DNA of 64,000 nucleotides from Octopus vulgaris. Its lineage: Eukaryota. Made by a program: the position numbers and the translations under genes. Below the pieces are notes generated by a model that had not been told where the DNA came from, searched no databases, and was given only the letters and a program-made list of their open reading frames with translations. Where the stretch lies: the NCBI GenBank assembly GCA_951406725.2, contig OX597833.1, positions 70,370,001 through 70,434,000 of the forward strand, written 5' to 3'. Positions within the stretch are counted from its first letter, which is position 1. The number at the start of each line of letters is the position of its first letter. Below are positions 25,601 to 28,600 of the stretch, in pieces.

Positions 25601-28600
25601 CACATGGCTGCAGGTTCAGTCTCACTGCGCAGCACCTTAGGGAAATGTCTTCTACTTTAGCCCCGGGCCGATCGATGCCTTGTGAGTAAACTTGAATAAC
25701 GGAAACTGTGTAGAAGCCCATTGTATATATATATATATATATATAATGTAATTGTATTTTCTATTTCTATTTCTATGTCTAGTTATATTTGTAAAATATT
25801 ATGTATAATGTCTTTGGTGTTGTGTAATGGTTTAATAAAGTATTGATTGGGTATTATCTGATGGTTGATGATTGATTTAGGTATGTTTCTCCATTTTCTC
25901 ATTTTGTATATATATATATATATATATATATATATATATATATATATATATATATATATATATATATACGCGTGTGTGTGTGTTTTATATTGATGATGAG
26001 CCAAAGCGGAAATGGTAGCTTTTGTGACCTTTCGGCTAGGTCTCCGACACTGGCTGGTTGGAGTGGCAGGGTAGGAAGGAATACGAAACCATAACTGACA
26101 GCAGATGGCGCAGCAGTAGGAAGCAACGAAGCAAGATAATGAGTTATCTATCTTTAGACAGGAGATGATTGAGTCGAAATGCATGTGTGTATGTATGTAT
26201 GTATATATATATATATATATATATATATATATTAACAATTAAGGAACGGCCATAATAGGCCATTCACCCACTAGAAATAACAGCCAAAGCTTCTACCGCA
26301 AATAAAGATCAATTCCGTAAACAGGAGAAAATTAAAAAAACATTTACCCTGTAATTTCTTGTACGGTATACCGTTTCATCTGCTGTTTAATGGTAAACTA
26401 ACCTGATTAAATTAAATCAAGCCAATCTTCCATAAGCCCTCAGATTCTTCAGCAAGAAATAGCTCAAGTCGGAACAGATATTTACACGAGGCATACCCAA
26501 TCCTGCCAAGGCAATATCTGACCTAAAATTTTCAAATCGTCGCACTCGCGCCAAATTTATCGGCAGCAAATAAATCGTCGATTCCATTACGGAATTAACC
26601 AAAAAATTCATAATTAATCAATATAGGGTGGCAAGGAAAATTTTGTAGAATTTTTTTGCCACCAGCGGCCCAGTGGGAAAAAATTAAATAGTCATAGACC
26701 ATTTTTAAGTTCAACATTAACAATTAAGGAACGGCCATAATAGGCCATTCACCCACTAGAAATAACAGCCAAAGCTTCTACCGCAAATAAAGATCAATTC
26801 CGTAAACAGGAGAAAATTAAAAAAAACATTTACCCTGTAATTTCTTGTACGGTATACCGTTTCATCTGCTGTTTAATGGTAAACTAACCTGATTAAATTA
26901 AATCAAGCCAATCTTCCATAAGCCCTCAGATTCTTCAGCAAGAAATAGCTCAAGTCGGAACAGATATTTACACGAGGCATACCCAATCCTGCCAAGGCAA
27001 TATCTGACCTAAAATTTTCAAATCGTCGCACTCGCGCCAAATTTATCGGCAGCAAATAAATCGTCGATTCCATTACGGAATTAACCAAAAAATTCATAAT
27101 TAATCAATATAGGGTGGCAAGGAAAATTTTGTAGAATTTTTTTGCCACCAGCGGCCCAGTGGGAAAAAATTAAATAGTCATAGACCATTTTTAAGTTCAA
27201 CATTAACAATTAAGGAACGGCCATAATAGGCCATTCACCCACTAGAAATAACAGCCAAAGCTTCTACCGCAAATAAAGATCAATTCCGTAAACAGGAGAA
27301 AATTAAAAAACATTTACCCTGTAATTTCTTGTACGGTATACCGTTTCATCTGCTGTTTAATGGTAAACTAACCTGATTAAATTAAATCAAGCCAATCTTC
27401 CATAAGCCCTCAGATTCTTCAGCAAGAAATAGCTCAAGTCGGAACAGATATTTACACGAGGCATACCCAATCCTGCCAAGGCAATATCTGACCTAAAATT
27501 TTCAAATCGTCGCACTCGCGCCAAATTTATCGGCAGCAAATAAATCGTCGATTCCATTACGGAATTAACCAAAAAATTCATAATTAATCAATATAGGGTG
27601 GCAAGGAAAATTTTGTAGAATTTTTTTGCCACCAGCGGCCCAGTGGGAAAAAATTAAATAGTCATAGACCATTTTTAAGTTCAACATTAACAATTAAGGA
27701 ACGGCCATAATAGGCCATTCACCCACTAGAAATAACAGGGTAAATGTTTTTTTAATTTTCTCCTGTTTACGGAATTGATCTTTATTTGCGGTAGAAGCTT
27801 TGGCTGTTATTTCTAGTGGGTGAATGGCCTATTATGGCCGTTCCTTAATTGTTAATGTTGAACTTAAAAATGGTCTATGACTATTTAATTTTTTCCCACT
27901 GGGCCGCTGGTGGCAAAAAATTCTACAAAATTTTCCTTGCCACCTATATTGATTAATTATGAATTTTTTGGTTAATTCCGTAATGGAATCGACGATTTAT
28001 TTGCTGCCGATAAATTTGGCGCGAGTGCGACGATTTGAAAATTTTAGGTCAGATATTGCCTTGGCAGGATTGGGTATGCCTCGTGTAAATATCTGTTCCG
28101 ACTTGAGCTATTTCTTGCTGAAGAATCTGAGGGCTTATGGAAGATTGGCTTGATTTAATTTAATCAGGTTAGTTTACCATTAAACAGCAGATGAAACGGT
28201 ATACCGTACAAGAAATTACAGGGTAAATGTTTTTTTAATTTTCTCCTGTTTACGGAATTGATCTTTATTTGCGGTAGAAGCTTTGGCTGTTATTTCTAGT
28301 GGGTGAATGGCCTATTATGGCCGTTCCTTAATTGTTAATGTTGAACTTAAAAATGGTCTATGACTATTTAATTTTTTCCCACTGGGCCGCTGGTGGCAAA
28401 AAAATTCTACAAAATTTTCCTTGCCACCCTATATTGATTAATTATGAATTTTTTGGTTAATTCCGTAATGGAATCGACGATTTATTTGCTGCCGATAAAT
28501 TTGGCGCGAGTGCGACGATTTGAAAATTTTAGGTCAGATATTGCCTTGGCAGGATTGGGTATGCCTCGTGTAAATATCTGTTCCGACTTGAGCTATTTCT

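Follow-up and report, generated by a model that had tools for sequence, protein, structure and literature searches.

Inverted copies of a hammerhead-bearing tandem repeat in Octopus vulgaris pair two fixed outer ends and stop near the predicted ribozyme cut site more often than expected

How does a tandem repeat come to lie in a genome as two arms that face each other head to head? The question is raised by an element in a 64,000-nt stretch of Octopus vulgaris DNA (assembly GCA_951406725.2, contig OX597833.1, positions 70,370,001 to 70,434,000; hereafter the window), from a host assembly of 2.8 Gb that is rich in microsatellites. The initial annotation placed the inversion point at the cleavage site of a hammerhead ribozyme and attributed the second arm to a cDNA that ran off the cleaved RNA, snapped back and primed its own second strand. 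We surveyed the family to which this element belongs and found that the outer ends of inverted copies are fixed, that they are paired one of each kind, that the inner ends of the two arms are coupled, that the stop rate falls off a cliff at the cut site, and that sequence variants are common to both arms. The exclusive pairing of the outer ends, together with the coupled inner ends, is the main result.

The element in the window covers 3185 nt between two (TA)n runs and is built of units of 484–486 nt (about 485), arranged in two arms (Table 1). Units are numbered such that nt 1 is the first base past the predicted cut, which is window position 28209. The element contains six complete hammerhead motifs, has a GC content of 35–38% (the retrozyme criterion being below 45%), and is non-coding, with no open reading frame of 150 aa inside it. 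The tail, present on the outer end of one arm, is probably the region bound by the reverse transcriptase (RT). A second dispersed repeat in the window, with a tandem unit of 184 nt (17616–18042, 22463–22830 and 35533–35833), is presumably SINE-like.

Table 1. Features of the inverted element and their positions in the window
Feature	Position	Strand	Remarks
(TA)n target, left side	26190..26232	.	
Left (A) arm, 3.1 tandem units	26231..27738	sense on -	outer end at unit nt 131 (site A), inner end at nt 79
Predicted type I hammerhead, left arm	27324..27430	-	further copies at 26840-26946 and 26354-26460
Head-to-head junction, 11-nt microhomology with 1 mismatch	27728..27738	.	exact over 4 nt at 27735-27738
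Right (B) arm, 3.5 tandem units	27728..29415	+	inner end at unit nt 3, outer end at nt 237 (site B)
Unit nt 79-89, complement of hammerhead helix I 3' strand	27804..27814	+	within the invariant 18-mer
Predicted type I hammerhead, right arm copy 1	28110..28216	+	predicted cut after 28208
Predicted type I hammerhead, further right-arm copies	28595-28701; 29081-29187	+	
Tail, the A-to-B segment of about 105-106 nt, only on outer end of B arm	29311..29415	+	26231 pairs with 29310
(TA)n target, right side	29413..29452	.	

Helix I of the window hammerhead is formed by ATTTCTTG and CAAGAAAT (28110–28117 and 28209–28216), with the core CTGAAGA at 28118–28124. Helix II (ATCTG/CAGAT) closes an insert of 58 nt; after it come GAAA, then a short helix III whose loop is palindromic, and finally GTA. 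Across the family, the core reads CTGANGA with any of the four bases at N, followed by GAAA and a GTA or GTC triplet, and helix I is open. The 17 helix pairs are formed in 98.4% of 509 cells from 30 distinct copies, and double-sided (compensatory) changes were found at four hammerhead pairs as against none in slid controls, although the shuffle test of this covariation is inflated by the kinship of the sequences. A search against Rfam gave nothing at the gathering score, for which the 58-nt insert in helix II may be the reason, and minimum-energy folds form helix II and not helix I. Judged by its sequence, the type I hammerhead is real, and its cleavage is a prediction. An 18-mer at 27800–27817 (unit nt 75–92) is identical in all 75 natural units and can pair with the 3' strand of helix I, the match being made perfect by a variant in nine of the 75 units; it may offer an alternative pairing that turns the ribozyme off.

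At the window junction the arms overlap in AGAAATAACAG (27728–27738), which agrees exactly with the reverse of nt 79–89 and with one mismatch with nt 3–13, where the six remaining units have AGAAATTACAG, 2 nt past the cut GTA/CA. The exact part of the overlap is ACAG (27735–27738), and the partner CTGTTATTTCT at 27804–27814 leaves a 65-nt loop (27739–27803). These coordinates bear out the initial description of a right arm that begins near the cleavage site, namely at unit nt 3 and 2 nt past the predicted cut, and of a one-mismatch microhomology with a 65-nt loop. A complement of at least 11 nt was also reached in 51 of 1000 shuffles and is thus borderline against chance. For this junction alone, snap-back and the annealing of two separate cDNA ends predict identical sequence.

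The outer flanks of the window element differ from each other, and the junction is therefore not a mirror-image read chimera. The earlier judgement that the inversion is no random assembly artefact agrees with this and with the 131 inverted copies that obey the same end rule (see below). Genome-wide, the nt-3/nt-79 junction was found twice, the second time in a 92%-identical subfamily (locus L190) with other flanks, an A arm of 53 nt and a B arm of 1.7 kb, and it arose there as an independent event. Among the contig pieces listed for four public sequencing runs over 27640–27800, none spans the junction, and their loose ends run on as normal units; perhaps only the animal that was sequenced for the assembly has this insertion. 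The five homopolymer differences between the window arms suggest read errors. Runs X1, X3, X4 and X6, which are labelled as three organisms, contain the family at very high depth, so that either it is common to related species or the labels are shared.

We mapped the window element and 139 further loci, of which 39 came from a search with the unit (40 of 1335 candidates scored), 26 were picked by a left-arm end (A-chosen) and 74 by a right-arm end (B-chosen, the first-listed 74 of at least 672). They contain 115 head-to-head junctions, or 114 after removal of L039, a duplicate of L038. The outer ends sit beside (TA)n at two sites, A at about nt 131 and B at about nt 237, and both flanks are AT repeats in 105 of the 115. 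One A end and one B end are combined in 105 of 114 inverted copies, with no A/A and no B/B pair; the other nine have one unclassifiable end, several being visibly damaged. The rule holds in 26 of 29 inverted copies that were chosen without regard to their ends. A held-out set of 19 later B-chosen loci gave 13 A+B copies, three with a damaged second end and three single arms, again with no B/B pair, and 100 further A ends that were listed included no A/A pair. With L190 counted, the total is 119 A+B copies out of 131, the remaining 12 having one unclassifiable end, and neither A/A nor B/B occurs. Copies with a single arm also terminate at A or B (24 listed, at least eight of them at A; L049 is excluded for an assembly gap, and L016 carries a 13-nt B stub). 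The inverted 5'-truncated copy, the one-sided tail and the microsatellite target expected of Penelope-mobilised sequences were all found.

For measurements on the arms, 104 A+B copies were usable, after exclusion of the complex L127 and manual correction of L124 and L063. The longer arm is A in 42 of them and B in 62. Internal pieces of arms have been deleted or replaced by short (TA)n runs at L026:6565-7396 and L043:3671-4564. Substitutions common to blocks or alternate units of one arm were seen at L041, L082 and L110 and suggest unit duplication after insertion, or multimeric templates; because of such blocks, we do not trust lap counts as evidence. Short copies in which both arms end close to the cut all have different junctions, and we rejected a MITE-like single origin for them.

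If fold-back alone had made the inverted copies, one arm should be nested in the other and should start downstream of its end. This geometry fits 43 of the 104 copies with B first and 25 with A first, nesting being often expected by chance alone, while 36 cannot be built either way; where both arms are shorter than one unit, 25 of 39 fit neither direction. Fold-back is therefore not supported as the general cause of the inverted copies, even though the window element itself has the required geometry, and the A+B rule speaks against it too. The arm supposed to be the copy ends at the fixed site A by (TA)n whatever its number of units, and A also ends single-arm copies, behaving as a priming site would. 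Of the 28 co-terminal pairs, 20 have an A arm that extends further 5', yet B alone can have served as the template. The nt-79 partner is used by the window element and by none of the other 19 copies that have an end at or below nt 15, and this complement was rejected as a fold-back hot spot (two matches genome-wide against at least 672 B ends). The proposed check of mapping the junctions of other inverted copies, which we carried out, thus found a pile-up of inner ends past the cut (described below) and a single recurrence of the nt-79 partner; of the idea that RT ran off the cleaved 5' end and the cDNA then snapped back, the clustering after the cut is supported and fold-back as a general mechanism is not.

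Some observations do have the form that fold-back predicts. Eight junctions are near-perfect palindromes (offset 0–2), and both nt-3/nt-79 events have fold-back polarity, with B ending at the cut site. The 53-nt A arm of L190, set beside the three units in the window, means that fold-back would need a variable stop at A, whereas priming at A needs no stop rule. A mirror test on 63 testable unit-specific substitutions flagged two, one of them with different letters, leaving one truly mirrored; it is a weak test, as most of these substitutions are later mutations or errors. At L038:4282-4314 (and its duplicate L039), the B arm begins exactly at nt 1 and carries a 29-nt inverted stub (nt 5–33), which makes it the best single candidate for a true snap-back.

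The two arms of a copy are coupled in sequence and in position. In 69 of the 80 copies that could be tested, an arm has its best match, or a tied one, in its partner, against a median difference of 3–11% to other copies, and no clear cross-subfamily pair of arms was found among the 80. Inner ends lie within 30 nt of each other in phase in 39 of 104 copies, compared with 16 expected from permuted partners, and the coupling persists when copies ending in the hammerhead zone are removed (22 of 66 against 9.3 expected). Measured from B, 28 of 104 pairs are co-terminal against 6.3 expected, with A ahead in 20, B in six and neither in two; a lead of more than 6 nt is held by A in 15 and by B in two. 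Eleven phase-matched pairs differ by whole laps, and in five of these the shorter arm begins 7–27 nt upstream, the wrong direction for fold-back. The B arm reaches beyond the A arm in 36 of 104 copies, in eight of them by more than 970 nt.

The junctions themselves carry scars of joining. Microhomology averages 2.5 nt in the 62 insert-free junctions compared with 0.8 expected, an excess that is perhaps inflated since the observed values come from gapped alignment and the null is ungapped. Inserts are present at 41 of 104 junctions, and 15 of 21 tested inserts of at least 8 nt match the flanks. Inserts of up to 149 nt at L059:694-843, L130:672-717 and L200:672-778 consist of iterated T/A runs copied from nt 22–34. 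Microhomology and templated inserts are typical of end joining by polymerase theta.

The inner ends also bear on the claim that the junction coincides with the cut site. In the end-chosen loci, 42 of 168 stops fall in unit nt 1–40, whereas 17 are expected from the bases at risk (P = 2e-8), and the stop rate in nt 1–40 is 2.9 times that of nt 446–485, a cliff at the cut site. The arms of one copy are not independent, and each kind shows the pile-up by itself, with 24 against 9.7 expected for A arms and 18 against 7.5 for B arms; it persists after two laps (12 against 4.6). The coincidence is thus above chance at the level of the family, even if the 11-nt complement itself is borderline. We regard this as genomic evidence that hammerhead-cut RNA is used as a template in vivo. 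A stop at nt 1–40 is nevertheless a minority fate, taken by 36 of 134 first arrivals, nine of 81 second and two of 40 third, which makes it likely that the templates are mixed, some being cut linear RNA and others circles or uncut multimers. Stalling of RT at helix I or at the U-run (nt 22–34), in place of run-off, may be an alternative source of the pile-up, but many ends lie at nt 3–8, inside helix I.

The same pairing of ends appears in a family that encodes its own enzyme. A young autonomous Penelope-like family of 781 aa (L171:5425-7767 and relatives), with RT, a C-terminal GIY-YIG domain and a CxxxxCxxC linker, which we take to be Neptune-like, terminates in (TA)n at two sites separated by about 39 nt; exact pattern matching counts 514 of its short ends and 102 of its tail ends. 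Among the ends listed (100 short, 17 tail) there are six mixed head-to-head pairs and no short/short or tail/tail pair, while independent choice would yield about 18 short/short pairs. Inverted copies of these families at L173, L176 and L179 were read directly. We found no hammerhead core near the ends of the 781-aa family and no terminal sequence in common with the non-coding unit in 40 GIY-YIG loci (this family and six other groups; 150 of 6136 candidates scored). Without such a common sequence, the family serves as a parallel and is no more than a candidate driver. The one strong terminal match to the unit, at L152, proved to be a nearby 57-nt fragment of the non-coding element and was discarded as a driver.

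With some reservation, we favour twin priming at two fixed sites of one template RNA by a Penelope-type enzyme, with subsequent joining of the cDNA ends. A borrowed RT/GIY-YIG dimer would bind the A–B segment and nick both target strands, and both nicked strands would then be extended on one RNA, giving one cDNA from A and one from B. The RT at A would lead; the one at B, having to copy the 106-nt tail, would trail and displace the first cDNA. Penelope-type RTs are not known to have RNase H. Both would halt at the hammerhead-cut 5' end or continue for several laps on a circle or an uncut multimer, after which end joining would pair the two antisense 3' ends, each priming the second strand of the other. 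In the window, the B cDNA would probably have run off the cut end and annealed to nt 79–89 of the A cDNA. Loss of one cDNA would give the single-arm copies, and the tail would be the A–B distance, left on the B side. The B arms that overtake A, above all the eight by more than 970 nt, argue against two RTs in single file on one circle, barring drop-off or later gain and loss of units, and the restriction of co-terminal ends to 28 of 104 copies, together with the 11 in-phase pairs that lie whole laps apart, speaks against twin priming on one template. Variants common to both arms would also be expected from fold-back or gene conversion. Further points against the model are the minimum-energy folds, in which helix I does not form, and the 40 GIY-YIG loci, among which no autonomous element with the same terminal sequence turned up.

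An amended form of fold-back, in which a B-primed cDNA snaps back, the endonuclease cuts its copy or halts it at A, and the palindrome, being unstable, later loses its centre asymmetrically, is in our view unlikely. It would account for the eight palindromic junctions, the 43 of 104 copies nested with B first, the variants shared between arms, and the nt-3/nt-79 junction that arose twice with the same polarity; it would also be in line with the self-priming proposed in the available text of PMC3846280 and the tail ascribed to endonuclease resolution in that of PMC8557442. Against this, it requires later deletions in the 61 of 104 copies that are not nested with B first, the largest being about 2.5 kb (L013), and an exact cut at A whichever unit is concerned; at least eight single-arm copies end at A as well. 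A central deletion should be even-handed, yet leads of more than 6 nt favour A by 15 to 2, and the one truly mirrored substitution out of 63 adds the little that a weak test can.

Twin priming on two RNA molecules from the same source locus, one per half of the dimer and joined later, is less probable still. It allows any difference in lap number and retains the fixed ends and end-joining scars, but does not by itself explain why one A and one B are chosen, and two results tell against it: inner ends remain coupled in phase when the hammerhead zone is left out (22 of 66, with 9.3 expected), and 80 copies gave no clear cross-subfamily pair. An assembly or library chimera at the window junction, for which the failure of the listed public-run contigs to span it and the five homopolymer differences could be cited, is highly improbable in view of the different outer flanks, the A+B rule followed by the window element, and the same junction in the other subfamily.

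Twin priming on one RNA can be widened to Penelope-like elements at large. They may integrate by obligate paired priming, in which a dimer uses two fixed sites of one RNA, a trailing RT displaces the leading cDNA, and the hammerhead is the default 5' stop; here we lean slightly against. If it were true, a single step would produce the inverted pLTR, the tail on one side and the palindromes at the junctions, and paired priming would be a distinct mode of integration among target-primed retroelements, expected across Penelope-like clades.

In LINE-1 twin priming, both target strands prime cDNA and microhomology joining gives a 5' inversion; the second primer lies at a variable internal site and the inverted part does not overlap. 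In contrast, both start sites are fixed here and both arms copy the same stretch of RNA, which gives an inverted repeat.

In its workings the element resembles an animal non-LTR retrozyme, and by most of the features tested it is one. In the available text of PMC7229834 and bioRxiv 10.64898/2026.07.22.740005, such retrozymes are likewise non-coding and low in GC, with tandem units that all carry a type I hammerhead, at hundreds of dispersed loci and presumed to be moved by Penelope-like elements. The reported units of 150–450 bp are slightly smaller than the 484–486 nt found here with the 58-nt insert in helix II, and the head-to-head form with two fixed ends, seen in most of our sampled copies, was not found described in the available portions of these two sources.

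Hammerheads have been reported in Penelope-like elements (PMC4209133). As here, the elements covered by the available text of PMC8557442 and PMC3846280 have an inverted 5'-truncated copy at the 5' end, a tail that is often confined to one end, targets of (TA)n and junction palindromes. Their tail is 30–40 nt and called optional, whereas ours is 106 nt, with a pairing that was counted and is exclusive; homology of our unit to the pLTR of an autonomous element was looked for in 40 GIY-YIG loci and not found. The accessible part of PMC3846280 already interprets palindromes at the junctions of inverted Penelope copies as the product of self-priming with an antisense template, which brings the fold-back first proposed for the window close to a published idea, and that of PMC8557442 calls the origin of the tandem and inverted structures undefined. 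Searches of the openly available main texts turned up neither a count of end pairing nor a paired-priming model for Penelope-like elements.

The closest biochemical parallel is the purified Penelope-like protein PAc, which, according to the portions of PMC11167929 available, cuts and extends both strands of AT-rich targets, starts at two internal RNA sites on either side of the tail, and probably acts as a dimer, according to prediction. As described there, start sites are not paired per insertion and the inversion is not derived from them; in vitro, no difference in start site was seen between the strands and hammerhead cleavage was found unnecessary, both of which weigh against the paired-priming model. 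The genomic 5' ends of the octopus family, on the other hand, mark the cut site, a genomic sign of hammerhead-cut RNA as template in vivo that is unseen in the in vitro work. The family offers more than 100 independent records of integration, and its template is short and its coordinates can be read; the A+B pairing, the inner-end coupling and the cliff at the cut site make the origin of the inverted structure directly testable in this existing in vitro system.
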